Shown: piece after piece, positions 4,971 to 61,899 of the stretch
Layout: each line of letters begins with the position of its first letter
Position numbering within the stretch: position 1 is the first letter of the stretch
DNA from: Elusimicrobiota bacterium
GTDB taxonomy: Bacteria; Elusimicrobiota; Elusimicrobia; UBA1565; UBA9628
Reading direction: 5' to 3'
DNA: 64,000 bases
Assembly (NCBI GenBank): GCA_016212795.1
Contig: JACRDT010000015.1
Location: 132,770 to 196,769, forward strand
Notes under the pieces: generated by a model
Seen by the model: the letters and a program-made list of their open reading frames with translations, nothing else
What the model was told of the DNA's origin: nothing
Databases searched by the model: none
Program-made: the position numbers and the translations under genes

Positions 4971-6041
4971 ATGATTGCCGCCTCGATGGCGCGCCGCGCC
5001 CTGCTGGCCGCGAGCCTGGCCGGTCTTTCCCTCACGGCCCGGGCGTTCGACGACGGCCTCGGCATCCCCCTGCCGGACAAGCCCCGCCTGACCGCCCCCT
5101 CGGCGCCGATGCCTTCCGCGCCGTTCGTCGCCGGCGTGAACTACCCCTGGCTCAACTACGGCTGGGACTTCGGCCGCAACGCCTGGGGGCACCGCGGGAT
5201 GTCCGCGCCCGAGAGCCGCGCCAAGGTCTCGGCGGATTTCGCCTTCCTCAAGAGCAAGGGCGTCAAGGTGGTCAGGGTGTTCCTCCTCTGCGACGGCAGG
5301 GCTTCGCCCGAGTTCGACGAGCGCGGCCGCGTCACCGGGTTCGACGACATGTTCTACCCCGACGTCGACGCGCTGCTGGCCGTCGCCCGGGAGAACGACC
5401 TCCGCCTCGTCCTGGTCATCCTCAACTTCGAGCTGCTCAACAAGGCGGCCTGGAGCGGCGGCGTGCAGTTGGGCGGCCGCGCGGCCGTCGTGGCGGACCC
5501 CGCGGTGGCCGAGTCGTTCTTCCAGAACGCCCTCGGGCCGCTCCTCGACAGGTACGGCGGCGACCCCGCCATCCTGGCCTGGGAGGTCATGAACGAGCCC
5601 GAGATGCGCACCGGCAGGCAGGGGATCGTGATCAGGTCCTACAAGGCGGTCGAGCCCGCCTCCATGCAGGCGTTCGCCGGGCGGGTGGCGGCCGAGGTCC
5701 ACGCGAGGACCGGCCACCTCGTGACCCTCGGCAGCCTAGGCCGCTCGAACGTCAGGACGTGGAAGGACGTCGGCCTCGATTTCTACCAGTACCACTACTA
5801 CGACTACCAGGAGCCGAGCCAGCCGCTCGACGTGCGCTACCGCGACCTGGGCCTGGACAAGCCCTGCGTCCTGGGGGAGTTCCCGACCAAGAGGTCCCTG
5901 CGCGGCATCGAGACCTACCTGGACACGATGCGCGACAACGGCTTCTCCGGCGCGTGGGCCTGGAGCTTGCGGGCCTCGGACGCGTACTCCGGTTTCGAAG
6001 GGGTCGCGGACCGCTTCCACGGCTGGGTCAAGTCGCACTGA
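4971..6041 (+). CDS. secreted GH5-like (clan GH-A) beta-mannanase/cellulase-type hydrolase
   Basis: Signal peptide MIAASMARRALLAASLAGLSLTARA. WEVMNEPE acid/base motif and CVLGEFP nucleophile motif. The start could also be ATG 4962. Confidence 0.7.
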   Translation: MIAASMARRALLAASLAGLSLTARAFDDGLGIPLPDKPRLTAPSAPMPSAPFVAGVNYPWLNYGWDFGRNAWGHRGMSAPESRAKVSADFAFLKSKGVKVVRVFLLCDGRASPEFDERGRVTGFDDMFYPDVDALLAVARENDLRLVLVILNFELLNKAAWSGGVQLGGRAAVVADPAVAESFFQNALGPLLDRYGGDPAILAWEVMNEPEMRTGRQGIVIRSYKAVEPASMQAFAGRVAAEVHARTGHLVTLGSLGRSNVRTWKDVGLDFYQYHYYDYQEPSQPLDVRYRDLGLDKPCVLGEFPTKRSLRGIETYLDTMRDNGFSGAWAWSLRASDAYSGFEGVADRFHGWVKSH

Positions 6042-13112: not shown

Positions 13113-14042
13113 TCAGGCCGGCAGGGTCCGGCCCTTCATGAAGGACGCCAGCGCGATGGAGAGCATCTTGGTCCTCGGCTCGTCGGCCCTCGACGGCAGG
13201 ATGACCGGCAGCCTGGCGCCGGCCACGATCGCCGCCGAGGCGAAGCCGTCGGCGAAGAACGAGATGGCCTTGTAGACCGCGTTGGCCGCGTCGAGGTCCG
13301 GGAGGACGGCGATGTCCGCGTCTCCGGGAACGAGCCCGCCCTTCACGCCCTTCTCGTCGGCGAGCCTGCGGGAGAAGGCGATGTAGAGGTCGTAGGGCCC
13401 CTCGACCACGGCGTTCCCGATGCGGCCGTCCCGGCTCATGGCCGCCAGCGCCGCGGCGTCCTCGGTGCTGGGGATGCCGGGGTTGACCTTCTCGATGGGG
13501 CAGATCACCGCGACCTTGGGGGTCGCCACGCCAAGCCTGCGCATCACGCCGACGGCGTTCCTGACGATGAGCCGCTTCTCCTCGAGGCTCGGGGCGATCA
13601 TGATGGCGGCGTCGCTCAGGGCGAAGAGCTTGTGGTAGCGGGCCGTCTGGAACAGGACGACATGGCTCAGGGCCGCCCCCTCGTCCACCAGCCCGGACTC
13701 CCGCCTCATGATCGACTTGAGGAAGGACTTGGTGTCCACCATGCCTTTCACCAGGAAATCCCCCCCGCCGTCCTTGATGAGGCCGGCCGCCAGGTCGCAC
13801 ATCCTGGAGACCTCCGTCTCCTGGAAGAGCTGGAACCGGCCGAGGCCCAGGCCCACCCGGGCGGCCAGCGCCTCGACCTCCTTCTTGTCTCCGACGAGCG
13901 CGCCCCCCGACAGCAGGCCGGCCTCGTCGCTCATCTTGAGGGCCTCGAGGACCTCCGCGCTGGCCGCGCCCGGCACCACGACGCGGTTGGGCTTGCCCCT
14001 CACCAGCTTCACCAGCTCCGAGAAGTCCTTGAACTCCATCAT
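13113..14042 (-). CDS. phosphate butyryl/acetyltransferase family protein (PTA_PTB)
   Basis: MMEFKDFSELVKLVRGKPNRVVVPGA...FLVKGMVDT...SDAAIMIAP...GPYDLYIAFS...AANAVYKA pattern. Start moved to ATG 14042, behind a GAGGGGGG SD. Confidence 0.75.
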   Translation of the reverse strand: MMEFKDFSELVKLVRGKPNRVVVPGAASAEVLEALKMSDEAGLLSGGALVGDKKEVEALAARVGLGLGRFQLFQETEVSRMCDLAAGLIKDGGGDFLVKGMVDTKSFLKSIMRRESGLVDEGAALSHVVLFQTARYHKLFALSDAAIMIAPSLEEKRLIVRNAVGVMRRLGVATPKVAVICPIEKVNPGIPSTEDAAALAAMSRDGRIGNAVVEGPYDLYIAFSRRLADEKGVKGGLVPGDADIAVLPDLDAANAVYKAISFFADGFASAAIVAGARLPVILPSRADEPRTKMLSIALASFMKGRTLPA

Positions 14043-14112
14043 CCCCCCTCGCCGCGCGTCCGCCCGCGGCTCGTCCTGCGAGGAGACATGCAATGCTCCG
14101 GCCAGCGGGGTA

Positions 14113-14121
14113 TGCTACAAT
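14113..14121 (+). promoter_or_regulatory. extended -10 TGCTACAAT for the M20 peptidase gene (leadered)
   Basis: TGnTACAAT. AGGAGA SD at 14175..14180, 5 nt before ATG 14186. Confidence 0.45.
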
Positions 14122-14185
14122 GGGCGCTGCCGCCCTCCTTGGCGCGCGGACGGCCGGGCCCATGGCCCTTCAACAGGAGACAGCG

Positions 14186-15418
14186 ATGAAGCAGCACATC
14201 CTCCGCAGCATCCAGTCCTATCGAGACTACGCCGTCGAGCTCCAGCGCGGCTTGACCGCCATCCCGGCCATCGCCCCGTCCAGCGGCGGGGAGGGCGAAT
14301 ACGACAAGGCCGTCTGGCTCGAAAAAGAGCTGCGCAAGCTGAAATTCGACAGCGTGACGCGCTACGACGCCCCGGACAAGAAGGCCAAGAAAGGGGTGCG
14401 GCCCAACATCGTCGCTCGCTACAAGGGGCAAAGCTCCAGGAAGACGCTCTGGCTCATGTCGCACCTCGACATCGTCCCGCCGGGCGAGCGCAAGCTCTGG
14501 AAGACCGACCCCTACGTCATGCACGTCCGGGGCGGCGCGCTCTACGGCAGGGGCGTCGAGGACAACCAGCAGGCCGTCGTGTCGAGCATCCTGGTGGCCC
14601 GCGCCTTCATGGACTCGGGCGCCCGGCCCCCCATCGACCTGGCGCTCCTCTTCGTCGCGGACGAGGAGGTGGGCAGCGGCTACGGGGCCGACTTCCTCAC
14701 GAGCAGGCACAGGAACCTCTTCGGCAAGGACGACATGTTCCTCGTCCCGGACGGCGGCAACAAGCAGGGGACCCTGGTCGAGGTCGCCGAGAAATCGATC
14801 TGGTGGCAGAAGGTCACGACCCACGGGGCCCAGTGCCACGCCTCCATGCCGGAGGCCGGCCGCAACGCCTTCCGGGCCTCCTGCGACCTGGTCACGCGGC
14901 TGGGCGGGCTCTACAAGAAGTTCGCCCTCAAGGACCCGCTCTACCGGCCCTCCTACTCCACCTTCGAGCCCACCAAGAAGGAGCCCAACGTCCCGAACAT
15001 CAACACCATCCCCGGGGAGGACGTCTTCTACCTGGACTCCCGCGTCCTGCCCCAGTACAAGCTCGCCGACATCGCCAGGGAGCTGCGCCGGGTCGCCGAC
15101 GCCGTCGAGCGCGACCACAAGGTGACGATCTCCTTCGAGGACGTCCAGCGCGGCGACGCCGCCCCCCCCACCCGGCCGGACGCCGGGATCGTCCTGGCGC
15201 TCATCGACTCCATCAGGGAGGTCCACGGCATCCGGCCCAAGCCCCAGGGCATCGGCGGCGGGACCGTGGCGGCGTTCCTGCGGCGGCTGAACCTGCCGGC
15301 CGTGGTCTACTCCAAGATCGACGAGACCGCCCACCAGCCCAACGAGCGCTGCACGCTGGACTTCCTCATCGGCGACGCCAAGGTCTTCGCCCTGACCCTG
15401 CTGAACTCCCGGCCTTGA
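14186..15418 (+). CDS. M20-family metallopeptidase/deacylase (ArgE/DapE-like)
   Basis: LWLMSHLDIVPPG, GRGVEDNQQ, FVADEEVGS motifs. Start chosen at the SD-preceded ATG inside ORF 14093..15418. Confidence 0.75.
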   Translation: MKQHILRSIQSYRDYAVELQRGLTAIPAIAPSSGGEGEYDKAVWLEKELRKLKFDSVTRYDAPDKKAKKGVRPNIVARYKGQSSRKTLWLMSHLDIVPPGERKLWKTDPYVMHVRGGALYGRGVEDNQQAVVSSILVARAFMDSGARPPIDLALLFVADEEVGSGYGADFLTSRHRNLFGKDDMFLVPDGGNKQGTLVEVAEKSIWWQKVTTHGAQCHASMPEAGRNAFRASCDLVTRLGGLYKKFALKDPLYRPSYSTFEPTKKEPNVPNINTIPGEDVFYLDSRVLPQYKLADIARELRRVADAVERDHKVTISFEDVQRGDAAPPTRPDAGIVLALIDSIREVHGIRPKPQGIGGGTVAAFLRRLNLPAVVYSKIDETAHQPNERCTLDFLIGDAKVFALTLLNSRP

Positions 15419-16152
15419 CACAGCTCGACGACTGGAGCTCGCCCGGGTTCGTCGCGCGCTACAACGGGCTCTACGGCATGAGCCCGGCAGAGGCCCTCGC
15501 CATCCTCGAGCCGCTCTCGCTCGGCCGGGGAGACCGCTTCGCGGACTACGGGTGCGGCAACGGCAGCTTCCTGGCCCTGGCCCGCCCTCTGGTGGCCGGC
15601 GCCGTCGGCGTGGATTCATCCCCCGAGCAGATCAAGCTGGCGCGGGAGAACCTCGCCGGGGTCCCCGGCGTCGAGCTCGTCGAGATGGACCTCCTGCGCT
15701 TCGCCCGGGACTGGACGGAGGCGGCCGGGTTCACCAAGGCCTTCAGCCGCAAGGCCCTCCACCACCTCGACGACGCGCGGAAGGGAAGCTTCTTCCAGGG
15801 CGCCTCCCGACAGCTCGACCGGGGGGCGCTCTTCCTCATCGAGGACGCCGTCTTCGATTTCGACAAGTCCGAGCTCGCCGCCCGGATGCCCCAGGTGGAA
15901 CGGGAAGCCCAGGCCTTCTTCGGGGACCTGTGGCCGCGCAAGCGCGCCGACGTGCTCCGGACCCTGGCCAACGAGTTCCCCACGGGCTGGCGCCAGTGGG
16001 AGGAGGCCCTGCGCCAGGGAGGCTTCGACATCGTGCGCCGCTGGCAGAAGACCTGCTTCTACGGCGCCATCCTGGCGAGGAATCACTCGCCCCCAGTCAC
16101 TCGCCCCCCCCACGGGGGGGCGAGTAGCGGGGGGGCATATTATGTTTTATAA
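15415..16152 (+). CDS. class I SAM-dependent methyltransferase
   Basis: FADYGCGNGSF SAM motif. TTG 15415 overlaps the upstream TGA (TTGA); the start is inferred. The last ~22 codons are encoded by the hairpin element at 16083..16152. Confidence 0.6.
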   Translation: MTQLDDWSSPGFVARYNGLYGMSPAEALAILEPLSLGRGDRFADYGCGNGSFLALARPLVAGAVGVDSSPEQIKLARENLAGVPGVELVEMDLLRFARDWTEAAGFTKAFSRKALHHLDDARKGSFFQGASRQLDRGALFLIEDAVFDFDKSELAARMPQVEREAQAFFGDLWPRKRADVLRTLANEFPTGWRQWEEALRQGGFDIVRRWQKTCFYGAILARNHSPPVTRPPHGGASSGGAYYVL

Positions 16153-16212
16153 GAAACTCCCTCAGAAACGGCATTTGCCCCCCACTACTCGCCCCCCGTG
16201 GGGGGGCGAGTG
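16083..16212. repeat. MITE-like palindromic element: two ~38-40-bp G/C-run hairpin arms in inverted orientation (16098..16137, 16176..16212) around an AT-rich core
   Basis: The left arm CACTCGCCCCCCCCACGGGGGGGCGAGTAGCGGGGGGGCA and the reverse complement of the right arm differ only in run lengths and one C/T. There is a partial extra left-arm copy TCACTCGCCCCC at 16083..16094. Confidence 0.85.
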
Positions 16213-16214
16213 AT

Positions 16215-17153
16215 ATGACCGTCGAGCTGTTCGCCAAAGGCTGCCTGGACGCGTGCTGGTACGGGGCCTACCATTACGTCGAGCCCTGGGTGGGCTGCGG
16301 CCACGGCTGCCACTACTGCTACGCGCGCTTTCGCGGCGCGGTCAGGAATTCGCTCGCCGCCCGGGGCGCGGCCTACGAGCGCCCCGTCCCCCTGCTCGAG
16401 CGCAAGGCCCTCCTCGACAGCGTCCGCCGCGGCGTCAAGGAGCACCAGGTCGAGAGCGTGAAGCTCTGCCGCTTCACCGACATCATGAACCCCGCCTTCG
16501 TGAAGGACGGGCTCGCCCTCGGGATCCTCGAGGCCCTGCTGGAAGGAGGGGCCCGGCGCATGATCATCACGACCAAGGGCCTGCCCGACGCCAGGATCAT
16601 GGACCTCATCAGCCGCCACCCGGACCGCTTCTCCTACAACGCGGCCGCCCGTCCCGCGCGGGGCCTGCCCCTGGAGCCCGGCCTCCCGCCGCTGGCCAAA
16701 CGGCTGGACGCGGCCGCGCGGCTCAAGGCCGCGGGGGTCCTGGTGACCGTGCACCTCGACCCCATGGCCCCCGGGTTCGACGACGACCCCGAGTCCCTGC
16801 GGCCCTTCCTGGAGGACCTGCGCGCCCGGGGCCTCCAGCGCGCCATGTTCTCCTACCTCCTGATCAACCCGGCGATCCGCGAGCGCCTCTCGAAGAAGCT
16901 CCCCCCCGCCGTCTTCGAGCGCATCCTCGGCAGCTACGACCTCCGCCGGCCCGAACGCATGCTCCCGGGCCAGGAGGAGACGGACTACTTCACCATCAAG
17001 CCCGAGATCCGCCGCGCCTCGGTGGAGCGCGTCGTCGCCCTGCTCGACGAGCTGGGGTTCCAATACGTGCTGTGCTCCCTCAAGAGCGTGGCCGGCGACG
17101 ACCAGGGCAAGCTGGGCAAGGCCAAGCTCTGCGACGGCTCGTTCTATGCCTAA
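16215..17153 (+). CDS. radical SAM protein, SplB/DNA-photolyase-like family (COG1533-like)
   Basis: VGCGHGCHYCYA CxxxCxxC motif near the N-terminus. Size and layout match spore-photoproduct-lyase-like radical SAM proteins. Confidence 0.65.
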   Translation: MTVELFAKGCLDACWYGAYHYVEPWVGCGHGCHYCYARFRGAVRNSLAARGAAYERPVPLLERKALLDSVRRGVKEHQVESVKLCRFTDIMNPAFVKDGLALGILEALLEGGARRMIITTKGLPDARIMDLISRHPDRFSYNAAARPARGLPLEPGLPPLAKRLDAAARLKAAGVLVTVHLDPMAPGFDDDPESLRPFLEDLRARGLQRAMFSYLLINPAIRERLSKKLPPAVFERILGSYDLRRPERMLPGQEETDYFTIKPEIRRASVERVVALLDELGFQYVLCSLKSVAGDDQGKLGKAKLCDGSFYA

Positions 17154-18408
17154 GGTCTGGGTCTTCAACGCCGAGGAGGTGGCCTCCTCGGAGGACCTGC
17201 ACTACGACAAGGTGCTGGTCCCGAAAATTCAGGACATCCTCATCCGGTTCGTGCTCTGCCTCGGCCGCGACGACCTCCTCATCGCCCCGGGGAGCATCCC
17301 GGAGGAGTTCGTCCGCTACACCCGGCGGGTCAAGGGCTTCCCCGAGTCGTTCTCGCCCATCCTGCGACTGCGCCGCAAGTCGAACCCCTGGCACCTGGCG
17401 GACAGCGTCTTCGAGGACGGGGAACTCCTCGAGACCCTGCGGGGCCTGGGCCGGCGGGGAGGGTGGGTCATCGAGCCGTACATCGAGTCCCCCCGCGTCG
17501 TCAGGCTCTGCCGCGCCGTACGCATGCCGACGGACAAGACCAACGCGGACCTGGCCCTGGCCGGCATCATCATCGAGCTCAACGAGAAGGCCCGCTTCAA
17601 GGACTTCGCCGCGAGCCTCGGCATCCCGACGCCGCCCGGGCGGGTGGCGGGCGACCGCGCCGGGATCGTCTCGGCCATGGAGGAGCTCGCCCGGGTGTCG
17701 CCCCGGCTCATCCTGCGCAAGTCCCGCTACGGGGGCGGCATGGGCAACCTGGTGGGCACGCCCGACGACATCCTGCGCAAGCTGCCGGACTGGTACAACG
17801 AGGGCGAGGTCCTGGTGGAGTGCTTCCTCGAGTTCTCGGCGGTCGCGGGGACGCTGGCCACCATCACGCACGACTCCGTGCGCTACTGGGGGGCCGACCA
17901 GCAGGCCTTCGAGCGCTCGGGGTGGGTCGGGTTCAGCTTCCCCTTCTGCGACCGCGCCGCGGCCGCCAGGCTCTGCAGCCAGTCCCTGCGCATCGCCAAC
18001 GCCGTGCACCGCCGGCGGGCCCGGGGCGAGATGAACCTGGACTGGGGCCTCAGGCCCGACGGCTCGGGCGGGCTCGAGCCGGTGGCCCTGGAGTGCAACC
18101 TCCGGCACAACGGCTTCGGCCACATGCTGCGCTTCGCGGAGGGCTACTTCCCGGGGGGCTTGGGCAAGCTGCGCATCCGCTACCTCGAGAACATCCGGTG
18201 CGGCGACCGGGATTTCACGGCCCTCGCCGCGGCGCTGCGCGCCGAGACCTTCCACGGCGAGCCCATCCTCATCGAGAGCCCCGGCCGGCGCCGGGGGGTG
18301 GTCATCGTGATGCCTCCCCGCGCCGGGAGGTTCGCGGCCGCCTGCTTCGCGGCCGACGCCCCGGGCCTGCGCGCCCTCGAGGAACACCTCGAAGCCGCTC
18401 TAGCGTGA
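17146..18408 (+). CDS. ATP-grasp domain protein
   Basis: 8-nt overlap with the upstream gene (ATGCCTAA). ILRKSRYGGGMGN, EVLVECFLE, MNLDW...ALECNLRHNG resemble ATP-grasp nucleotide/Mg-binding motifs. Confidence 0.55.
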   Translation: MPKVWVFNAEEVASSEDLHYDKVLVPKIQDILIRFVLCLGRDDLLIAPGSIPEEFVRYTRRVKGFPESFSPILRLRRKSNPWHLADSVFEDGELLETLRGLGRRGGWVIEPYIESPRVVRLCRAVRMPTDKTNADLALAGIIIELNEKARFKDFAASLGIPTPPGRVAGDRAGIVSAMEELARVSPRLILRKSRYGGGMGNLVGTPDDILRKLPDWYNEGEVLVECFLEFSAVAGTLATITHDSVRYWGADQQAFERSGWVGFSFPFCDRAAAARLCSQSLRIANAVHRRRARGEMNLDWGLRPDGSGGLEPVALECNLRHNGFGHMLRFAEGYFPGGLGKLRIRYLENIRCGDRDFTALAAALRAETFHGEPILIESPGRRRGVVIVMPPRAGRFAAACFAADAPGLRALEEHLEAALA

Positions 18409-19631
18409 TGGATCGGGTCCGGGTGGCGCTCTCCTTCGCCCTGATCTTCTGCCTCGCCTCCATCGACAGCTCCATCGCGCCCATGGTCAGGGAGCTGAGC
18501 GCCCACTTCGGCGCCCCCATGGACCAGACCCTCTGGCTCATCTCGGCGTGCACGGCGGGCATCGTAGCCGGCGTGCTGCTGGGCCCCGCGCTCATCTCGA
18601 GCTTCCCGGCCCCGCGGCTCCTGGCCGCCTCGGTGGCCGCGCTGGCCGCCAGCCACCTGCTGTTCCTGCTGGCTCCGGGCTTCGGCGCCGCCCTGCTGTG
18701 GCGAGCTGTCTTCGGCCTGGCCTGCGGCATGACCGCCTCGCTCCTTTGGTGGCTGACCTTTGAAGGCGTGTCCCAGGCCTACTACCAGGCCATGGTGGTC
18801 GTCATGATGTCGGCCCGGCCCCTGGCCACCGCCGTCGGCGTGCCCGCGGCGGGGCTCCTGGCGTCCAGCGCGGGCTGGCGGCCGCCCTTCTGGGCCCTCG
18901 GCGGGCTCATGGCCGCCGCCGGGGCCGCGCTCTGCATGGCGATGCCGGCCGACACGGCGCCGAAGCGCTCCTTCGCCCCGGCCGGCGTGTTCTCCGAATA
19001 CGCCGAGGCGCTCAGGCTCCCCCGCGCCGCGGCCTTCTACGCCGGCATGACCGTCAACCGGATGTGCTATTTCGGCTTCTACGCCCTGACCGGCATCTGG
19101 TTCCTGCGCCACTACGGGCTGGGGCTGGCCCGGATCAGCTTCGCCCTGCTCGTCATCGGGCTGGCCGAGGGCCTGGTGAACTTCGCGGCGCCGGCGCTGC
19201 AGCGCCGGTGGGGCCTGGCCGCGACCTTCACCTGGGGCCTGGCGGGCTCGGCGGTCCTGCTCCCCATGTTCCTGTTCGGCTGGCTTCCGCTGGCGGCCGC
19301 CGTGGGGCTGGTCGCCGCCTTCATGCTCCTCGACCGGGTCTACGTCATGGCCGCGGTCGTCAGCATCAGGGAGCTGTTCGCGGACTCGGGCAGCAAGACC
19401 GCCTTCGGCAGCCTCAACACCCTGACGGCCTGGCTGGGCTTGACCTTCATCTCCTGGCTCGAGGGGCGCTTCACCGACGCCTGGGGCCTGGCCGCCATGG
19501 AGTGCGTGCTCCTGGCGTGCTTCGCGGCCGGCTCGCTGCTGCTCTACAGGGCGCTCAGCCTCGCCGCCCCGCGCGGGGCGCGGCCCCCTCCCGCCGGAGG
19601 AAGCGGAAACCCGCTCTCGATTTTTATATGA
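18408..19631 (+). CDS. MFS transporter
   Basis: ATG shares its A with the upstream TGA. About 12 hydrophobic segments, MFS-like N-terminus. Confidence 0.7.
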   Translation: MDRVRVALSFALIFCLASIDSSIAPMVRELSAHFGAPMDQTLWLISACTAGIVAGVLLGPALISSFPAPRLLAASVAALAASHLLFLLAPGFGAALLWRAVFGLACGMTASLLWWLTFEGVSQAYYQAMVVVMMSARPLATAVGVPAAGLLASSAGWRPPFWALGGLMAAAGAALCMAMPADTAPKRSFAPAGVFSEYAEALRLPRAAAFYAGMTVNRMCYFGFYALTGIWFLRHYGLGLARISFALLVIGLAEGLVNFAAPALQRRWGLAATFTWGLAGSAVLLPMFLFGWLPLAAAVGLVAAFMLLDRVYVMAAVVSIRELFADSGSKTAFGSLNTLTAWLGLTFISWLEGRFTDAWGLAAMECVLLACFAAGSLLLYRALSLAAPRGARPPPAGGSGNPLSIFI

Positions 19632-21526: not shown

Positions 21527-23770
21527 ATGAAAGACCGGGGACATGCCGCCGCGCGACTGACCACCCTCCTCCTGGCGACGCTCCTGGCCCTGCCGTCGGC
21601 CGCGCGGGCGCAGGCCGTCGTCGCCGGGGCCGCGGGCCGGGCGCCGGTGGTCCGCGTCCCGGTCATCGCCGCGCCGGCCTACCAACCCTCGCCCGCCCTG
21701 GGGGGCGCGGCCGCCCTGCCCCTGGGCGCAGCCGGCCTGCCCCAGGTCCCCGACTGGTCGCTCGACGCCCGCCAGATGAAGGAGGCCTACAAGGCCGCCG
21801 AGGTGCGCATGCTCCGGACGGCCGACGCCGTGGCGGCCATCCCGGCCGAGTCCCGCACGTTCGAGAACACGGCGCTGGCCCTGGAGCGCGCGGAGTCCGA
21901 TTTCCAGGACGCCATGCTGCCCCTGAGGTTCCTGTCCGAGGTCTCGCCGGACGCCAAGGTGCGCCGCATGGCGGACGCCATCGAGCGCCGGACCAGCAGG
22001 ATGTTCCAGTCGTACGGGGACCGTTCGGACCTTCACCGGGCCTATCAGGAAGTCGCGGCCAAGGGCCTGGAACTCGGCGGGCTGGAGAAGAAGCTCCTCG
22101 ACGACGCCCTCCGGGGATTCGAGCGCCGCGGCATGAACCTCCCCCGGGAGTCGCGCGACAAGCTCAACCGCATCAGCCGGCGGCTCTCGGACCTCAGCCA
22201 GCAGTTCTCCAGGAACGTTTCGGGCATCTTCGAGGGCATCGAGGTCACCCGCGAACAGCTCGACGGCCTTCCCGAGGACTACGTCAAGGGCCTGGAGGCC
22301 GCGCCGGAGGGCCGCTACCGCGTCACCCTCGACTACCCCACCTTCTTCCCGTTCATGAAGTACGCCAAGGACGCCGCCCTGCGCAAGGAGCTCTACCTCA
22401 AGTTCGAGAACAAGGCGGCCGAGGCCAACCTCCCCATCCTCGGCGAGACCCTGGCCCTGCGGCGGGAGGAGAGCCTCCTCCTCGGCCGCCAGGACTTCGC
22501 CCACCTCGTCATCGAGGAGCGGATGGCCAAGACCCCGGAGAAGGTCAAGACCTTCCTCGAGCGCATCAAGGACCTGCTCAAGGGGCCGGCCGAGGCCGAG
22601 TACCAGGCGCTCCTCGAGACCAAGCGCCAGGACGACCCCGCGGCCGAGTCCGTGCCCGGCTGGGATCGCAGCTACTACGCCAACAAGCTCAAGCAGAAGC
22701 TCTTCTCCTTCGACTCGGAGGAGGTCCGCCAGTACTTCCCCGTCGAGCAGGTCATCAAGGGGACGCTCGAGGTCTACCAGGAGCTCCTCGGGGTGCGCTT
22801 CCGGGAGCTGGCCTCCGACGCCTGGCACAAGGACGCCCGGCTCTTCGAGGTCATCGACGCGGCCTCGGGACGCAGCGTCGCCTACTTCTACCTGGACCTC
22901 CACCCCCGGGAGAACAAGTACGGCCACGCGGCGCAGTTCACGCTCAGGAAGGGCAGGGCCCTGCCGGACGGCTCCTACCAGAAGCCCGTCGGCGCGGTGG
23001 TCGCGAACTTCTCCAAGCCCACCCCGGACAAGCCCGCGCTCCTGACCCTCGGCGAGGTCGAGACCCTCTTCCACGAGCTGGGCCACTGCATGCACGAGAC
23101 CCTCACGCAGGTCAAGCTCGGCAGCTACGCCGGCGCCAGCGTGGCCTGGGACTTCGTGGAGACCCCCTCGCAGATGATGGAGAACTTCGTGTGGCAGCCC
23201 GAGGTGCTAAGAAGGATATCGGGACATTACCAGGACCCTTCGAGGAAACTCCCGGAGGAGCTCCTGAAGAAGATGGTCGCGGCTCGCAACTTCCTCGCCG
23301 CGACCAGTCATCTCTGGAACGCGGCCCTGGCCGCCGTGGACCTGGCCTACCACACCCTGACCGGGCCCTTCGACCCGGCCGCGGTCTACCGGGAGGTGTT
23401 CGAGGCGTTCGGCCTGAAGGTCATCGAGCCGGGCACCCACCCCGAGGCCGCCTTCGACCACATCATGGGAGGCTACGCGGCCGGCTACTACGGCTACATC
23501 TGGTCCGAGGTCTACGCCCAGGACATCTTCTCCGTCTTCAAGAAAGCCGGGGTCCTGAGCCCCGAGGTGGGCATGCGCTACCGGAAGGCCATCCTGGAGC
23601 GCGGATCGAGCGTGGACGAAGGCCGGCTCCTGCGGGACTTCCTGGGCCGCGAGCCCGACGAGAAGGCCTTCCTCGAAGGCATGGGGATCAAGACCAGCCC
23701 CCGGGCCCGGCGGCCGGGGTTCGCGTGGTACAAGCCCTGGACCTGGTTCGGCTTCCTGCTGAAGTCCTAG
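21527..23770 (+). CDS. secreted M3-family zinc metallopeptidase (oligopeptidase A / Dcp-like)
   Basis: Signal peptide LLLATLLALPSAARA. HELGHCMH HExxH motif with downstream E. Size is typical of the M3 family. Confidence 0.85.
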   Translation: MKDRGHAAARLTTLLLATLLALPSAARAQAVVAGAAGRAPVVRVPVIAAPAYQPSPALGGAAALPLGAAGLPQVPDWSLDARQMKEAYKAAEVRMLRTADAVAAIPAESRTFENTALALERAESDFQDAMLPLRFLSEVSPDAKVRRMADAIERRTSRMFQSYGDRSDLHRAYQEVAAKGLELGGLEKKLLDDALRGFERRGMNLPRESRDKLNRISRRLSDLSQQFSRNVSGIFEGIEVTREQLDGLPEDYVKGLEAAPEGRYRVTLDYPTFFPFMKYAKDAALRKELYLKFENKAAEANLPILGETLALRREESLLLGRQDFAHLVIEERMAKTPEKVKTFLERIKDLLKGPAEAEYQALLETKRQDDPAAESVPGWDRSYYANKLKQKLFSFDSEEVRQYFPVEQVIKGTLEVYQELLGVRFRELASDAWHKDARLFEVIDAASGRSVAYFYLDLHPRENKYGHAAQFTLRKGRALPDGSYQKPVGAVVANFSKPTPDKPALLTLGEVETLFHELGHCMHETLTQVKLGSYAGASVAWDFVETPSQMMENFVWQPEVLRRISGHYQDPSRKLPEELLKKMVAARNFLAATSHLWNAALAAVDLAYHTLTGPFDPAAVYREVFEAFGLKVIEPGTHPEAAFDHIMGGYAAGYYGYIWSEVYAQDIFSVFKKAGVLSPEVGMRYRKAILERGSSVDEGRLLRDFLGREPDEKAFLEGMGIKTSPRARRPGFAWYKPWTWFGFLLKS

Positions 23771-23978
23771 GCCGCAAGGTCTGGATTCCTCGACCGGGAA
23801 GACCGCAAGCTTCCCTCATGGCGTGCGCGACGTTCCCGAGGCCCGCCCACCGAAGGAGGTCCGCTACGCCCTGACGAGCCATCTCGTGGGATTATCCTAC
23901 TAGAACTGAGCGGCGCACATTCAAATTACTGTTTCAGTATCAATATTAATCTGGATATTTGCACAATGCATATTCAAC

Positions 23979-24007
23979 TTGCATAATGTACGATTCTTTG
24001 CTACACT
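23979..24007 (+). promoter_or_regulatory. TTGCAT-N17-TACACT sigma70-like promoter for the DUF4143 ATPase gene
   Basis: Read directly in the AT-rich stretch 23880..24030. Confidence 0.45.
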
Positions 24008-24029
24008 TCTTGTCATAGGCGATCTGAAA

Positions 24030-25217
24030 ATGGTGGACAGGACAGCGGGACCCATCATCAAGAGGCTGGCCCAGACGCATCCGGTCGTGACAGTCACCGG
24101 ACCGCGCCAGAGCGGCAAGACCACTCTTTGCAGGATGGTCTTTCCGGAGAAGCCGTATGTCAACCTGGAGAATCCGGCGACCAGGTCTTTCGCGCTCGAT
24201 GATCCGGTCGCGTTCCTCAGACAGCACCGTGACGGCGCCATCTTCGATGAGATCCAGCGGGCGCCGGACCTGACTTCCCATATCCAAGCTTCCCTCGAGG
24301 ATGACTCCCGCCCAGGCTTGTTCATCTTGACGGGAAGCAGGCAACTGGAGGTGATGGAAGCGGTGAGCCAAAGCCTCGCCGGCAGGACCGCTCTGGTCAA
24401 ACTGCTCCCGTTCAGTCTCGACGAATTGCGCGGCAGCTATGACATAGGGTCTCTCGACGCGTTGGTCGCGCGCGGATTTTTCCCGAGGATCTACGACCGA
24501 GGCCTGGACCCGGCGCAAGCCTTGGGGGACTATTTCGAGACCTGTGTGGAGCGCGATGTCCGCAGGGTCGTCCAAGTCAAGGACCTGAGCACGTTCGGGC
24601 GGTTCGTCCGGCTCTGCGCCGCGAGAGTCGGGCAGCTTCTCAATCTGAACGGCCTGGCCGATGACGCGGGCGTCTCGCATACCACGGCGCGGTCATGGAT
24701 GAGCGTCTTGGAAGCCATGTATGTCGTCTTCCTCCTCCAGCCCTACCACAAGAACATCGGCAAGCGGCTCATCAAGTCGCCCAAGGTCTATTTCTACGAT
24801 GTCGGCTTGGCCAGCCATCTCCTCGGCATCGAGAACGAGGTCCATGTCGCGGGCCATCCTCTGCGCGGGAGCCTCGTCGAGAACCTTGTCATCATGGAGG
24901 TCTTGAAACACCGCCTTCATCGGGGAGGCGGGGCGGGCTTGAGTTTCTACCGCGACAGCGCGGGCCACGAGGTGGACCTGCTCGTGCCGATCGGGCCCGA
25001 GCCGTTCCCCATCGAGATCAAGGCCGGCGCCACCTTCGGCCCGGATTACCTGAAGGGGCTGGCCGCTTTCTCCAAGGCGCACCGTCAGGCGGCCGTCCGA
25101 GGAGCCGTCGTGTACGCCGGAGACGCGGCGCAGGAACGCCACGGCATCCTCATCCATCCCGTGATGGATGTCCACGCCCTGCTCGATCGCTTGCCCGGGG
25201 CCTACAGCCGCGCGTAG
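24030..25217 (+). CDS. AAA ATPase with DUF4143 domain (AAA_14-type)
   Basis: VTVTGPRQSGKTTL Walker A, IFDEIQ Walker B-like. Start set at MVDRTAGPIIKRL. Visibly lower GC than the surroundings. Confidence 0.75.
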   Translation: MVDRTAGPIIKRLAQTHPVVTVTGPRQSGKTTLCRMVFPEKPYVNLENPATRSFALDDPVAFLRQHRDGAIFDEIQRAPDLTSHIQASLEDDSRPGLFILTGSRQLEVMEAVSQSLAGRTALVKLLPFSLDELRGSYDIGSLDALVARGFFPRIYDRGLDPAQALGDYFETCVERDVRRVVQVKDLSTFGRFVRLCAARVGQLLNLNGLADDAGVSHTTARSWMSVLEAMYVVFLLQPYHKNIGKRLIKSPKVYFYDVGLASHLLGIENEVHVAGHPLRGSLVENLVIMEVLKHRLHRGGGAGLSFYRDSAGHEVDLLVPIGPEPFPIEIKAGATFGPDYLKGLAAFSKAHRQAAVRGAVVYAGDAAQERHGILIHPVMDVHALLDRLPGAYSRA

Positions 25218-25314
25218 AGGTTTTCGCCCTCCACCTTGGCAATGAGCCGTTCGAAGGCCGCGTCACGGCCCGAAAGGGCTTTGCCTTCCCCCCAGGTCCC
25301 GATCCGGTCGCTAA

Positions 25315-25349
25315 ATCAGCCCCGGACGACCGCGGACTCCACCGGCCCG
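25315..25349 (+). repeat. 35-bp direct repeat, copy 1 (left flank of TA cassette)
   Basis: ATCAGCCCCGGACGACCGCGGACTCCACCGGCCCG. 33 of 35 positions are identical to 26049..26083 by manual alignment. Confidence 0.85.
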
Positions 25350-25403
25350 CATCGCCGAATGTTCAACCCTGGTTGTAGGCCTGGGGGATGGGGGCGCGCC
25401 CGG

Positions 25404-25679
25404 CTAAAATGACTTCAGGAAGCGTCTGACATCGTCATGGCTGCCGTAAAGCAGGTACAAAATCGCGCCTTCGCGTTTGAGATACAGGACCCGTTTCTTG
25501 ATGCCCGCCCGGAACTCGAAGAAGTCGCCCCGGAGGTGTTTCATCCCAAGTCCCCTGGGAAACCGGCCGGCTTCCCAGGCTGTCTCGAATTTCGCGACTG
25601 CTTGATAAAGGCGCCTGCCTTCGCCCGGGGATAGCTCGGAGATCGTCGCGTGGAAAGACCCCGAGTAGCCGAACCGCAC
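25404..25679 (-). CDS. RelE/ParE-superfamily type II toxin
   Basis: GTG 25679 lies 4 nt after the antitoxin stop. GMKHLRGDFFEFRAGIKKRVLYLKREGAILYLLYGSHDDVRRFL fits the RelE/ParE C-terminal pattern. Confidence 0.6.
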   Translation of the reverse strand: MRFGYSGSFHATISELSPGEGRRLYQAVAKFETAWEAGRFPRGLGMKHLRGDFFEFRAGIKKRVLYLKREGAILYLLYGSHDDVRRFLKSF

Positions 25680-25683
25680 GGCG

Positions 25684-25968
25684 TCAGCGCGGCTTGAGCC
25701 GCGACTTGAGATGCCGCAAGGAAGCTTGGGAGTCGAGCCCGGCCGCAGCCGGGGGCTTGGCCGCGAGCCCGCGAATCTTCTCCCACTCCTCATCGGTAAA
25801 TGGGTCGCTGGTCGGGACCGGCTCAATGCGGGTCAACGCCACGCGCCGGCCGTCTACTATGAACCCCACCAAGTCGCGAGCCTCGCGCAGGCTCAGGGCT
25901 TTGCGCACGGCCTTGGGCAGGGTCACCTGCGCCTTGTTGCCCAAATGGCTGAAATAGACATGCTGCAT
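25684..25968 (-). CDS. AbrB/MazE/SpoVT-type antitoxin
   Basis: N-terminus LGNKAQVTLPKAVRKALSLREARDLVGFIVDGRRVALTRIE is a swapped-hairpin (SpoVT-AbrB)-like motif. It sits upstream of the toxin. Confidence 0.65.
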   Translation of the reverse strand: MQHVYFSHLGNKAQVTLPKAVRKALSLREARDLVGFIVDGRRVALTRIEPVPTSDPFTDEEWEKIRGLAAKPPAAAGLDSQASLRHLKSRLKPR

Positions 25969-25974
25969 GGGAAT

Positions 25975-26003
25975 ATCCTATTTTACGGAAATCTCAGATT
26001 TCC
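25975..26003 (-). promoter_or_regulatory. TA promoter/operator: TAGGAT-N6-ATG plus perfect inverted repeat GGAAATC-N3-GATTTCC
   Basis: Minus strand reads GGAAATCTGAGATTTCCGTAAAATAGGATATTCCCATG. The palindrome at 25987..26003 is a likely antitoxin operator. Confidence 0.45.
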
Positions 26004-35314: not shown

Positions 35315-35986
35315 ATGGCCAGACCGGCCCTCCCCAAGGGCGAGAAGACCCGCCAGAACATCATCCGGACCGCGCTGCGGCTCGTGGCCAAGCGGGGCTT
35401 CAGCGAGACCAGCTTCCAGATGATCGCGGACGCCCTGGGCCTCAGCCAGTCCGCGGTCCTGTACCATTACAAGACCAAGTACGCCCTCTTCGAGGACACC
35501 ATCAAGACCATCGTGCGGCACAACCACGAGACGGTCAACGCACTGACGCGCATGACGGACAACGCCGGCCAGCGCCTCGTCAAGCACTGCCTGGGCAACG
35601 TCCTCTGGGCGCATCGCTATAGGGCGGACGGCCAGGTCCTCATCCTCCTCTATTACTTCGCCTGCTTCGAGAGGAAGTTCACCTCCCTCTTCACGCAGAT
35701 GATGGAGCGCGGCCGCGAGAGGCTCATGGTCCACCTGCTGGCCGGGGAGAGGGAAGGGCTGTTCCGCTTGCCGTCCGGGCCGGCCACCGCGGCCGAGACC
35801 CTGCAGGACGCGCTGTTCGGCGCGATGCTCCACGCCATCTCGGCCCCGGAGGGCAGCGTCCCGCGCGGGGAGCTCGAGGGCAAGTGGCGCCAGGTGGTCG
35901 CGGCCCACACGGGCTGGACCGATCCCCGCCCGTCTCTAGTCACTCTACCCTCCCCGCGGGAGGGTAGAGTAGGGGGAGGCGAGTAG
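35315..35986 (+). CDS. TetR/AcrR-family transcriptional regulator
   Basis: KTRQNIIRTALRLVAKRGFSETSFQMIADALGLSQSAVLYHYKTK HTH motif. The last ~15 codons are encoded by the hairpin element. Confidence 0.85.
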   Translation: MARPALPKGEKTRQNIIRTALRLVAKRGFSETSFQMIADALGLSQSAVLYHYKTKYALFEDTIKTIVRHNHETVNALTRMTDNAGQRLVKHCLGNVLWAHRYRADGQVLILLYYFACFERKFTSLFTQMMERGRERLMVHLLAGEREGLFRLPSGPATAAETLQDALFGAMLHAISAPEGSVPRGELEGKWRQVVAAHTGWTDPRPSLVTLPSPREGRVGGGE

Positions 35987-36007
35987 CGAGGGGGCCGATG
36001 CCGCATT
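35941..36007 (+). repeat. solo copy of the G/C hairpin element with a covarying stem
   Basis: Perfect 13-bp stem ACTCTACCCTCCC/GGGAGGGTAGAGT, followed by GCGAGTAGCGAGGGGGCCGATGCCGCATTT. This tail resembles the arm tail GCGAGTAG(C/T)GGGGGGGCA and the GGCATTTG at 16170. Confidence 0.7.
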
Positions 36008-36016
36008 TGGTAAAAT
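36008..36016 (+). promoter_or_regulatory. extended -10 TGGTAAAAT upstream of the LuxC-like fusion gene
   Basis: TGnTAAAAT lies 19 nt before ATG 36036, directly abutting the hairpin element. Confidence 0.4.
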
Positions 36017-36035
36017 CTCCCCGGCAACGACGCCC

Positions 36036-38648
36036 ATGACACCCGCGAAGAACCGCTTCGTTTTCGGACGATGGGAGACGGCCGGGCCCCTCACTCCCGA
36101 GGACGCCTCCCGCATCGGCGGCCAGGCCCGGACGGCCATGCCCGCCCTCGCGGACTATCCCGTCGACAAGATCCTCTCCCTGCTCGGCCGGACGGCCGAC
36201 CGCTGGGCCGGCCCGCGGTCCGGCCTGCGCCGCGAGGCGCTGCGCCGGCTGCCCGCCATCACCGGCTTCTCGCCCGCGATGGTGGCCAAGGGGCTCGACG
36301 AGCTCTGCTGGACCCTGGACCCCGGCCTGCTGGCGAGGAAGCTCGAGACGGAACTGCGGCCCGACGCCGCCCCCCAGCGGCTGATCTGGGAGCCCCTGGG
36401 GGTCGTCCTGCACGTCCTGGCCGGCAACGTCTTCGTGGGCGCGGCCGGCGCCCTGGTCGAGGGGCTCGTCACCCGCAACGTCTCCATCCTGAAGATGCCC
36501 TCCGCCGACACCTTCTTCCTGCCGGCGCTCCTGCGCTCTCTGGCCGAGCTCGACCAAGACGGCGTGGTCGCCGGGTCCGTGGCGGCCGTCGAGTACGGCT
36601 CGGGCCAGCAGGACGTCATCGACCGCTTCAAGTCGTCCGTGGACGCCGTCGCGGTGTGGGGCGGCGAGGGCTCCGTCCGGGCGTACCGCGATGGGCTGCC
36701 GGCCAGGACGAGGCTGCTGGTCTTCGGCCCGAAGATCAGCCTGGCGGTCGTGACAAAGGAAGGGCTTGAGGAAACGGATCTCGCCTCAACGGCCCGACGG
36801 CTGGCCGCTGAGGCGAGCATATGGGACCAGAACGCCTGCACGGCGCCCCAGGTCTGCTACGTGGAAGGAGAGCGCGCGGCGCGCGCTCTCGTCGAAGCCC
36901 TCCCGCAAGCCTTCGAGGCGGCGGCCCGACGCCTGCCGCCCGGCGCGATCGGCCGGGACAACGCCGTCGAGATCCAGAAGCTGCGCGCCATCGCTTCGGT
37001 CGCCCAAGGCCGCGGGGAAGGGGTCCTCAAGCGCTCCCCCCGCGGGCTGGACTGGACCGTGATCCTCGACCGGGACCTCACCCTGGAGCCCTCCCCCCTG
37101 CACCGGACGCTGCGCGTCGCGCCGTTCCGGGACGTCTCGGAAGTCCTGGGGCAGATCGAGTCCCTGCGGGGGTACATCCAGACCGTCGGGCTCGTGGCGT
37201 CCGCGGGCGAGCAGCGCGGCCTGGCCGAAAGCCTCGCCCGAGCCGGAGCCCTGCGCGTCCTGGAGCTGGGCGCGATGGCCTCGGGGGAGATCGACGACCC
37301 GCACGACGGCCAATACGACCTCCCCCAGTACATGAACCTCGTCATCGGGCGGGTCGGCAGGACCCGGGGCTCCACCCTGCACCTGCCCGAGGCCGAGAGG
37401 CGGCGGCTCGTCGACGCGCGCCTCCGATGCCTCGTCGCGGCGGCCCGGCGCTCCGCGTTCTACGGCAAGCGGCTCAAGGGGCTGACCCTCGAGACCGCCG
37501 CGGACCTGCCCCGGGTGCCCGTCCTCACCCGGTCCGAGATGGAGGCGAACATGCCCCCCCAGGGCGACGGGCTCTCCACGGGCCCCTGGGCGGGCGGGTA
37601 CGTCTCGCGCAGCGGCGGCTCGACCGGCGAGCCCAAGTTCTCGGTCTACGACCGGCACGACTGGGACGCCATGATCTCGAGCGCCGTCGACGTCTTCAGG
37701 GACATGGGCTTCGCCGAGGACGACCGGCTGGGCAACTTCATGCTGGCCGGGGACCTCTACGGGAGCTTCGTCTCCTTCGACCACATCAACGCCAGGCTCG
37801 GGCTCACGAGCTTCGCGTTCGCCGGGAATTCCAACCCCGAGACGTTCGTGAAGGTCTGGAGGAAGTTCCGCCTTACGGCCGTCCAGGGGATACCCTCCCA
37901 CCTCCTGCCCTTCCTCCGGCGAGCCAAGGAGCTTGAGCCGGGCCTGACCCTGCGCAAGCTCATGTACGCCGGCGTCCCCCTGGCCCCCTCCGACTACGAC
38001 TGGCTCAAGGCCTCCCTCAAGGTCGAGCGCATCGCCTCGGTCATCGGCGCCAACGACGGGGGGCAGATCGCCTACCAGTGCCCCATGATGCGGGGGGCCG
38101 CGCACCACGCCGTCGACGAGTTCAACTTCCTCGAGGTCGTCGACGGCAAGGACCGCCCCGTGCCGGAGGGCCAGGCCGGGCAGATCGTCATCACGAGCCT
38201 CCTCAAGCTCGCCTTCCCCCTCATCCGCTACGCTCTCGGCGACAGCGCCCGGATCGTCCCCCGGCCCTGCCCCTGCGGCGGGACGGCCCGGGTGATCGAG
38301 TACCTGGGCCGCTGCGACGACGTCCTCGCCGTCGGCATGCTCAACGTCCGCTACCGCGACTTCCAAGACGCGCTCGGGCGCTTCCCCGTCTCGGCCCTCC
38401 AGCTGGCCGCGACGAACGACGCCAGGGGCGAGTCCGTCGTGGTGCGGGTGGAGACCGGCGCGCCGGCGTCCGGCGACGGCCTGGCCGAGCGCATGCGCCG
38501 GTCCATCCTCGCCGCCATGGAGAAGGTCCGCGAGCGCCTCGCCGCCGGCGCCCTGGCCGGGCTGCGCGTCGAGCTCTTCGGCCCCGGCGAGCTTCCCCGC
38601 AACCTTCGGAGCGGCAAGGTCAAGGCGCTCGTCGACGAGAGGCGATGA
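36036..38648 (+). CDS. fusion protein: LuxC-like acyl-CoA reductase (N, ~430 aa) + PaaK/coenzyme-F390-synthetase-like adenylate-forming enzyme (C)
   Basis: N-terminal half: LHVLAGNVF, ILKMPS, IWDQNACTAPQVCYV (LuxC-type catalytic Cys context). C-terminal half: SRSGGSTGEPKF, IVITSL...PLIRYALGD, PCPCGGTARVIEYLGRCDD as in PaaK-like ligases. Confidence 0.7.
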   Translation: MTPAKNRFVFGRWETAGPLTPEDASRIGGQARTAMPALADYPVDKILSLLGRTADRWAGPRSGLRREALRRLPAITGFSPAMVAKGLDELCWTLDPGLLARKLETELRPDAAPQRLIWEPLGVVLHVLAGNVFVGAAGALVEGLVTRNVSILKMPSADTFFLPALLRSLAELDQDGVVAGSVAAVEYGSGQQDVIDRFKSSVDAVAVWGGEGSVRAYRDGLPARTRLLVFGPKISLAVVTKEGLEETDLASTARRLAAEASIWDQNACTAPQVCYVEGERAARALVEALPQAFEAAARRLPPGAIGRDNAVEIQKLRAIASVAQGRGEGVLKRSPRGLDWTVILDRDLTLEPSPLHRTLRVAPFRDVSEVLGQIESLRGYIQTVGLVASAGEQRGLAESLARAGALRVLELGAMASGEIDDPHDGQYDLPQYMNLVIGRVGRTRGSTLHLPEAERRRLVDARLRCLVAAARRSAFYGKRLKGLTLETAADLPRVPVLTRSEMEANMPPQGDGLSTGPWAGGYVSRSGGSTGEPKFSVYDRHDWDAMISSAVDVFRDMGFAEDDRLGNFMLAGDLYGSFVSFDHINARLGLTSFAFAGNSNPETFVKVWRKFRLTAVQGIPSHLLPFLRRAKELEPGLTLRKLMYAGVPLAPSDYDWLKASLKVERIASVIGANDGGQIAYQCPMMRGAAHHAVDEFNFLEVVDGKDRPVPEGQAGQIVITSLLKLAFPLIRYALGDSARIVPRPCPCGGTARVIEYLGRCDDVLAVGMLNVRYRDFQDALGRFPVSALQLAATNDARGESVVVRVETGAPASGDGLAERMRRSILAAMEKVRERLAAGALAGLRVELFGPGELPRNLRSGKVKALVDERR

Positions 38649-38661
38649 CGAGGGGGGCCTG

Positions 38662-43695: not shown

Positions 43696-43725
43696 CCCCA
43701 GGGCGGGCCGGGGCCGGCCCGGCGC

Positions 43726-45138: not shown

Positions 45139-45191
45139 GGTCTCAGGTCCGCGCGGAGCGGCCCCTTCGGCGCGAGGCCGGCGGGACCCCG

Positions 45192-46872: not shown

Positions 46873-46989
46873 TCGCCCCTCTTCCTATGGCTGGTCGCGC
46901 AACGATCCGGGATCCCAGCCTGTCCCGGCACCATGAGTCTGACATTCCTCGCCAAGCGCTCGCAAGAGGACTTTGATATCATTCTCCCG

Positions 46990-50081: not shown

Positions 50082-50123
50082 CGCCGCTCGGGAGGAAGGG
50101 CCCGGCCGAGGACGCTCCCCCGC

Positions 50124-61866: not shown

Positions 61867-61872
61867 GCCGAC

Positions 61873-61899
61873 ATCATACGAACATCCGGCGTCTTCCAA
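61873..61899 (-). promoter_or_regulatory. TTGGAA-N15-TATGAT promoter-like motif, -10 box 6 nt from ATG 61866
   Basis: Minus strand reads TTGGAAgacgccggatgttcgTATGATgtcggcATG. Confidence 0.4.

Follow-up and report, generated by a model that had tools for sequence, protein, structure and literature searches.

The closest described relatives of the element reported here are repetitive extragenic palindromes (REP sequences) tagged with the tetranucleotide GTAG, which, together with their dimers (bacterial interspersed mosaic elements, BIMEs, and REP doublets forming hairpins, REPINs), are thought to be mobilised by REP-associated tyrosine transposases (RAYTs) (PMC3733652; PMC3116915). GTAG REPs are extragenic, lying between co-directional or convergent open reading frames (ORFs) and providing TAG stop codons, are sometimes intragenic, and form inverted dimers with spacers of 20-100 bp (Di Nocera et al., PMC3733652). 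Elusimicrobia are not named among the phyla with GTAG repeats in that survey (PMC3733652), and a full-text search returned no paper in which Elusimicrobia and REP sequences come together. The present work concerns a palindrome of ca. 130 bases (positions 16083-16213) situated between a methyltransferase gene and a radical-SAM (S-adenosylmethionine) gene in a 64,000-nucleotide stretch of an Elusimicrobiota bacterium genome (contig JACRDT010000015.1), hereafter called the window. The palindrome is probably an inverted, tail-to-tail pair of a GTAG-tagged REP-like repeat, that is, a non-autonomous mobile palindrome of the REP dimer (BIME/REPIN-like) type, and copies of the repeat are scattered over the genomes of a group of high-GC Elusimicrobiota.

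The palindrome and its repeat units

The letters of the stretch agree with the double hairpin described there by an earlier sequence-only reading. The whole stretch is able to form a single long hairpin in the RNA fold; the 151 nt comprising it fold with -97.3 kcal/mol, compared with -57 +/- 4 kcal/mol in shuffles (z = -10), and 0.00 matches to the arm pattern are expected in shuffles of the 70% GC window. The two arms are, as that reading had it, inverted copies of each other, with 86% complementarity over 29 nt and 100% over the outermost 13 nt (16082-16094 and 16202-16214), the imperfect inverted repeat extending over ca. 40 nt.

The left repeat unit (16096-16150, plus strand; 69.8 bits, E 4e-18 with R1, a covariance model built from 16 units) is oriented like the flanking genes, whose strands were read from codon-position GC, and comprises a hairpin, GTAG, a G7 run, and a T-rich tail. 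Its hairpin (16099-16125, plus strand) pairs ACTCG-C8 with G7-CGAGT around the loop ACG (12 bp, -29.2 kcal/mol), and the stretch GTAG, C, G7, C (16124-16136, plus strand), which comes after it, is conserved among the copies. The right unit is inverted (16162-16214, minus strand; R1 65.3 bits, E 7e-17), so that the mRNA strand shows a C6 run, ACTAC, and then the hairpin (16187-16211, plus strand; ACTCG-C6, loop GTG, G7-CGAGT; -25.1 kcal/mol). Each arm had been described as a perfect 12-bp hairpin, which holds for the left one, while the right one has 11 perfect pairs according to the repeat finder and 12 in the fold. Similarly, the 38-nt AT-rich core was given with its correct length (16137-16174), but it is not a separate centre; it is made up of the units' weakly conserved tails, which here face each other, and contains ATG 16142 and TAA 16150-16152. 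An extra half-arm, TCACTCGCCCCCAGT (16083-16097, plus strand), repeats part of the left hairpin's 5' arm in direct orientation, and the same half-arm arrangement recurs in a copy found within the preA gene of another genome (locus L005, see below).

The repeat family

A search for further copies of the arm, suggested by the sequence-only reading, revealed an interspersed repeat with 19 copies in species-representative genomes, metagenomes, and the window: four in the window and 15 in six other Elusimicrobiota metagenome-assembled genomes (MAGs) and in metagenome contigs. The unit of ca. 40-55 nt has the form (Y)TCACTCG-C7-8, a 3-nt loop, G6-8-CGAGTAG, one base, G6-7-C, and a loose tail ...GATGCCGTTTY..., with stems of 11-13 bp, loops of 3 nt, and folding energies of -25 to -29 kcal/mol. 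The homopolymer runs differ by one base among the copies (C6-8, G6-8), which is consistent with slippage. In every unit the G-rich strand, GGGGGGGCGAGTAGCGGGGGGG in the window (16114-16135), fits the G3-N1-G3-N8-G3-N1-G3 quadruplex motif, and hairpin and quadruplex forms of this strand could compete.

An exact-pattern hairpin scan of one genome per bacterial species matched 12 loci, nine of them in six Elusimicrobiota MAGs of 64-71% GC (JBGFSC01, JACQWX01, JACRDR01, JACRNU01, JAPLKK01, and CAYLZQ01), three of which have two loci each. All nine share the unit beyond the search pattern, including GTAG and the second G run, and GTAG follows the hairpin in 11 of the 11 copies retrieved by a pattern that does not require it. 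The other three matches, in an actinobacterium, an Actinomycetes MAG, and a Polyangiales MAG, have only a C/G hairpin with a longer loop and are regarded as unrelated, since GTAG and the second G run are missing from them. Five more distinct copies came from the metagenome scan, while the viral contigs contained none. The R1 model added three copies, two of them diverged ones in the window and the third in the preA gene of MAG JBGFSC01; in each 8-kb seed locus it found one copy, with no extras; its weak matches at 28412 and 10882 were rejected on inspection. The repeat family is real but sparse in available sequence: one to three copies are known in each of the other MAGs (by exact pattern or model) and four in the 64 kb analysed here.

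As most of the exact matches to the G-rich pattern in the metagenome loci (L014-L044) are long poly-G contigs, probably sequencing artefacts in public assemblies, the repeat itself might be suspected of being a sequencing or assembly artefact of poly-G/poly-C runs. This has next to no probability, as the structured unit recurs in assemblies made independently by different projects, an identical copy is shared by three of them (L005, L013, and L016), and reading frames are preserved through the unit.

The pair in the window is the only dimer among the 19 copies, the remaining 17 being single units, and no second 130-bp composite was found in the window, the one-genome-per-species scan, the metagenomes, or the loci of relatives. 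This bears on the MITE-like (miniature inverted-repeat transposable element) architecture proposed in the sequence-only reading. In a classical MITE, the whole composite of ca. 130 bp would be the mobile entity, its arms would be terminal inverted repeats, and a DDE transposase would act on it in trans. The perfect 13-nt inverted repeats at the outermost ends, the typical size, and the empty site in a relative described below agree with such an element, and bacterial MITEs (Correia/NEMIS, ERIC) are likewise ca. 100-150 bp long, carry terminal inverted repeats, insert near genes, and affect the expression of neighbouring genes. However, the repeated unit is the single arm of ca. 40-55 nt, whereas the composite was found once, neither a demonstrable target-site duplication nor a parent insertion sequence was found, and no transposase lies nearby among the ca. 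40 ORFs of the window. A classical MITE is therefore decidedly unlikely; a unit made of one arm and 17 other copies that are single follow the REP/BIME pattern instead.

Settings of the other copies

All 19 copies lie between or inside genes, which are mostly co-directional as judged from codon-position GC, and with respect to transcription 13 of them have one orientation and six the opposite one. The flanking genes are unrelated and include rpmF-plsX, ribH-nusB, rplO-secY, a kinase gene, a response regulator gene, and others. In copies that present the hairpin first, either the stop codon of the upstream gene lies 1-3 nt ahead of the hairpin or the ORF of that gene continues into the element, the latter being the case for all three such copies in the window.

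One of the diverged copies of the window (35939-36009, plus strand) has a 13-bp hairpin, ACTCTACCCTCCC/GGGAGGGTAGAGT, with three differences from the consensus, all of them compensated, which leaves the stem perfect; after the hairpin come an extra consensus 3' arm, GTAG, the G run, and the tail. The tetR-type gene (TetR, 35315-35986) reads through this copy and stops at the TAG of the element (35984-35986). The other, decayed copy (39850-39904, plus strand; R1 E 0.01) lies within the 3' end of a gene coding for a major facilitator superfamily (MFS) transporter (38662-39906). This protein and the methyltransferase have matching tails, VARTPCGGASIGGA and VTRPPHGGASSGGA, read in the same frame, and the stability of the hairpin is no longer above that of shuffles. 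The neighbourhood of these two copies (35315-45720) comprises the TetR gene, a gene for a LuxC-type acyl-CoA reductase/AMP-binding fusion (36036-38648), and the MFS gene, as well as a 400-aa ORF without a Pfam match and two B12-binding radical-SAM genes (40100-42529, plus strand, and 43726-45720, minus strand).

The copy in preA (L005, the same as L013 and L016; 520-600) makes an in-frame insertion of ca. 20 residues between two 4Fe-4S motifs, as seen in three independent assemblies on comparison with pig dihydropyrimidine dehydrogenase (DPD) and nine Elusimicrobia orthologues. A diverged copy occupies the same preA site of a second MAG in another frame (L051 11089-11143, E 9e-11). The two PreA proteins with the repeat, which belong to two species, are not each other's closest relatives, and the site is empty in the nine other orthologues, which points to a target hot spot or, alternatively, to an old insertion followed by repeated precise loss. 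In tolerating insertions within coding genes in frame, here in preA and as the tails encoded by three genes (methyltransferase, TetR, and MFS), the repeat resembles the Rickettsia palindromic elements (RPE); those, compared here by description only, are longer and AT-rich, and according to PMC3733652 they end in CGTC.

Both the variety of these settings and the constancy of the unit bear on whether the repeat is a selected cis-regulatory RNA, such as a translational operator, a thermosensor, or a protein-binding or mRNA-stabilising hairpin. The sequence is nearly invariant between species, the hairpin has been retained via compensated changes, six copies combine a G run at Shine-Dalgarno distance with a coupled short ORF (see below), and REPs are known to stabilise upstream mRNA (PMC3733652). 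Yet the copies occur in both orientations relative to transcription (13 vs. 6), have unrelated neighbour genes, lie in frame inside ORFs, and include a decayed one that is tolerated; no Rfam family corresponds to them. Taken as the whole explanation, regulatory selection is rather unlikely, and, regardless of function, near-identity between copies at sites that are not orthologous must come from copying.

Searches for other classes of elements gave the following. In the window nothing reached the gathering thresholds of Rfam 15, and the E-value mode returned only sub-threshold matches, nearly all to microRNA-precursor hairpin models; no tRNA was found by the tRNA search. CRISPR, attC, and uptake-sequence readings were dismissed, since neither arrays nor GTTRRRY core sites are present and the copies are too few.

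Comparison with GTAG-tagged REPs

The repeat shares with GTAG REPs a short GC-rich stem-loop (an 11-13-bp stem with a 3-nt loop, against 6-13 bp and 2-4 nt in that class) bearing a conserved GTAG at one end, and its copies are interspersed among co-directional genes, with one providing the TAG stop of the TetR ORF and those in preA being intragenic. As with GTAG REPs, both single units and an inverted dimer foldable into one long hairpin occur, the spacer in the window being 38 nt. The GTAG ends of the window pair face inwards, which makes it a 'TT' dimer in the naming of PMC3733652.

Several features weigh against assigning the pair to this class. The tag lies, on the strand that reads GTAG, 3' of the stem-loop, and is half paired, its GT forming part of the stem; in canonical REPs an unpaired GTAG is placed 5' of the stem. 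A second conserved G run with a tail and arms made of G/C homopolymers are further departures from GTAG REPs. The copy density is low for a classical REP, with one copy per 8-kb seed locus, none in syntenic relatives, and one to three per MAG, although the copy number is an apparent one. Since no other dimer was found, the pair may also represent two separate insertions or a local inverted duplication. Finally, a Y1/HUH transposase acting on hairpins would be the obvious candidate for the enzyme that moves the repeat, and no transposase of any kind, RAYT included, was found among the ca. 40 ORFs of the window. Even so, a REP-like repeat in the form of an inverted pair remains the probable identity of the element.

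The insertion site

The methyltransferase gene adjoining the palindrome codes for an S-adenosylmethionine-dependent enzyme and extends from the TTG at 15412 to 16152 (plus strand), its start overlapping the stop codon of the M20 peptidase gene (14093-15418) in TTGA. The 814-aa ORF (13708-16152) taken for it in the sequence-only reading is an over-call typical of high-GC DNA; the orthologues have 222 aa and their alignment starts at TTG 15412, which is the real start. A homology search with the 814-aa ORF as the query gave no matches; the orthologues were taken via synteny instead. Codons 16084-16149 and the stop TAA 16150-16152 are element sequence, as had been claimed: the final 22 codons, HSPPVTRPPHGGASSGGAYYVL, have no counterpart in the four aligned orthologues, which terminate with ...LLARKEG or ...KES, while the window protein terminates with ...ILARN-HSPPVTRPPHGGASSGGAYYVL. 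On the other side, the SplB-like radical-SAM gene (16215-17153, plus strand) begins 3 nt after the right hairpin. Its ATG 16215 is the first start codon of the open frame, and about 90 homologues, nearly all from Elusimicrobia, align with the product over at least 99% of its length; some sources label them 'DNA repair photolyase'.

The empty site that was to be looked for in syntenic relatives exists. In the closest of them (L045/L046, 57% protein identity) the same operon has no element at the junction: the TGA of the methyltransferase gene directly abuts the GTG of the radical-SAM gene (...AAGGAGGGCTGAGTG...), with no intergenic space, and an AAGGAGG ribosome-binding site is contained within the final methyltransferase codons (...GCCCGCAAGGAGGGCTGAGTGGCT...). 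The window has ca. 130 extra bases exactly at that junction, and the AAGGAGG site is gone. The R1 model found no copies over ca. 70 kb of the syntenic relatives. The pair is thus shown to sit at a junction that lacks intergenic space in the closest relative, to have extended the methyltransferase by 22 codons and given it a new stop, and to have removed the AAGGAGG ribosome-binding site that relatives carry.

A target-site duplication cannot be demonstrated, because the AT/AT flanking the pair is self-complementary and hence indistinguishable from the inverted repeat; moreover, the relative of 57% identity is too diverged to fix the boundaries. At other loci, CATGAAA flanks the L008 copy and CCATGA occurs near both ends of the L011 copy, but both were rejected as duplications: a TCATGA-like sequence is part of the tail consensus as well, and a consistent duplication could not be defined. 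Two empty sites, one in L045 (about 5985-6000) and that of preA in L052, share the 10-mer GCCCGCAAGG, which in both codes for Ala-Arg-Lys, and both form a small GCCC/GGGC palindrome; both in the window and in L005, the sequence bordering the element (GGCGAG / GCTCGCC) is similar to the arm of the element itself. The arm-like flanks and the shared 10-mer may reflect target recognition by similarity, or coincidence.

Transcription and translation across the junction

Besides a MITE-like element, the sequence-only reading had offered a terminator-plus-promoter cassette. In such a cassette the methyltransferase transcript would stop at the left hairpin, and that of the radical-SAM operon would begin in the AT-rich core. 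The hairpins are indeed very stable, the core holds TATTAT and TATAAG, and several genes of the window have TAnAAT boxes just upstream of the ATG. Nevertheless, consensus scans of 15400-16900 detected no sigma-70 promoter, with no -35/-10 pair, and no hairpin-plus-T-run terminator: neither hairpin has a T run behind it, the sequences that directly follow being AGCGGGGGGG or GATATG. The left hairpin lies within the translated methyltransferase ORF, and the abutting TGA and GTG of the closest relative imply co-transcription. Sister copies within rplO-secY, rpmF-plsX, and ribH-nusB reside in normally co-transcribed operons, where termination would be harmful, which renders a strong terminator function unlikely. 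The cassette is a very improbable explanation of the element.

A different consequence concerns the start of the radical-SAM gene. Its sole Shine-Dalgarno-like purine run, G7 at 16200-16206, belongs to the 3' arm of the right hairpin, ends 8 nt before ATG 16215, and is fully paired in the predicted fold, in agreement with the suggestion that the ribosome-binding purines are buried. The palindrome also contains an ORF of 23 codons, MFYKKLPQKRHLPPTTRPPWGGE (16142-16213, plus strand), proposed here as a coupling ORF. Its ATG follows the left G7 run at a distance of 6 nt and precedes the methyltransferase stop by 8 nt, so that the ORF overlaps the end of the methyltransferase ORF, and its TGA (16211-16213) ends 1 nt before the radical-SAM ATG. 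At all remaining operon junctions in the window, the stop codon overlaps the next start.

An ATG-initiated ORF of 14-23 codons is present in six of the six copies whose hairpin abuts a downstream start, namely the window copy and those upstream of plsX, nusB, secY, a kinase gene, and one unknown gene. Each of these ORFs ends no more than 4 nt short of the downstream start or overlaps it; five of the six end at a conserved GAG-TAG, GAG-TGA, or GAG-TAA; in the sixth the run length is shifted by one base and a TGA overlaps the ATG. A comparable ORF is found in three of the nine copies of opposite orientation (Fisher p = 0.017, for copies partly related by descent). The presence of short ORFs in all six start-abutting copies suggests reinitiation through the hairpin.

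The following relay can be proposed. The right unit would place G7 8 nt before the radical-SAM ATG and, by pairing it within a stable GC hairpin, would keep the 30S subunit from binding directly. Ribosomes would enter at ATG 16142, behind the left G7 run and at the end of the methyltransferase ORF, and in translating 16142-16213 would melt the right hairpin. Termination at TGA 16211-16213 would be followed by reinitiation 1 nt later at the radical-SAM ATG, restoring the translational coupling that the other junctions of the operon obtain from stop/start overlaps. Known termination-reinitiation coupling via a short upstream ORF is similar in that the stop lies from 4 nt before the start to overlapping it and the start region is locked in a hairpin that would be opened solely by a ribosome in elongation; it differs in that here the short ORF would have been brought by a mobile repeat, and the coupling is deduced from sequence. 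Against the relay it must be said that the copies are few and share kinship, that GC-rich DNA is open in most frames, and that the terminal TGA/TAG belongs to the repeat consensus. That the 23-codon ORF relays ribosomes through the hairpin by termination-reinitiation is plausible, though not established, because the copies are partly related and most frames of GC-rich DNA are open.

In a more far-reaching version, the repeat as such would be a portable translation module, supplying, where it is oriented so as to abut a start codon, a short ORF, a stop near the host ATG, and a ribosome-binding G run caged in a hairpin, and thereby converting initiation into obligatory reinitiation, or else would act through a hairpin/G-quadruplex switch of the G strand by means of the second G run. 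This version is considered unlikely.

Genes and other features of the window

The operon in which the palindrome lies has the gene order M20 peptidase, methyltransferase, radical SAM, pre-ATP-grasp, and MFS, which is kept in relatives. This five-gene cluster (14093-19631 in the window; L045-L050), comprising an M20/M28 peptidase, the methyltransferase, the SplB-like radical-SAM protein, the pre-ATP-grasp protein, and the MFS transporter, is conserved across Elusimicrobia and may represent a small-molecule or peptide-modification pathway.

A TAnAAT-like -10 box is placed 6-10 nt before the ATG, with no Shine-Dalgarno sequence, at the starts 21527, 35315 (plus strand), 13054, 25968, 54774, and 62371 (minus strand), which suggests that leaderless or near-leaderless mRNAs may be common in the source genome. 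A patch of lower GC content (23000-26000; 62-64% vs. ca. 70%) carries a gene for an AAA_14/DUF4143 ATPase (23979-25217), and a gene of the homologous type is located near preA in L051 (7246-8415). The GC skew is strongly negative (about -0.2) at 46800-50100, where the ORFs 46804-48546 and 48543-50081 have no Pfam match. An ORF of 1615 aa (57052-61899, minus strand) codes for a protein that combines an ATPase domain of the AAA_5 (dynein-related/MoxR-like) type with a von Willebrand A domain at the C terminus.

Biological significance

With the probable assignment of the element to the REP type, small palindromic mobile repeats of this kind exist in Elusimicrobiota, a mostly uncultured phylum. 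The annotation is also corrected: the 814-aa ORF is an over-call, three genes of the window have C-terminal tails encoded by the repeat, and the repeat is present inside preA. The location of the repeat in the zero-length junction of a translationally coupled operon makes it a natural test case for the tolerance of insertions in compact genomes. Were the repeat indeed a translation module or a quadruplex switch, it would move about as a regulator acting at essential operon junctions, among them rplO-secY and rpmF-plsX. The short-ORF relay, if real, would offer selfish palindromes a simple and general means of doing no harm ahead of essential genes.

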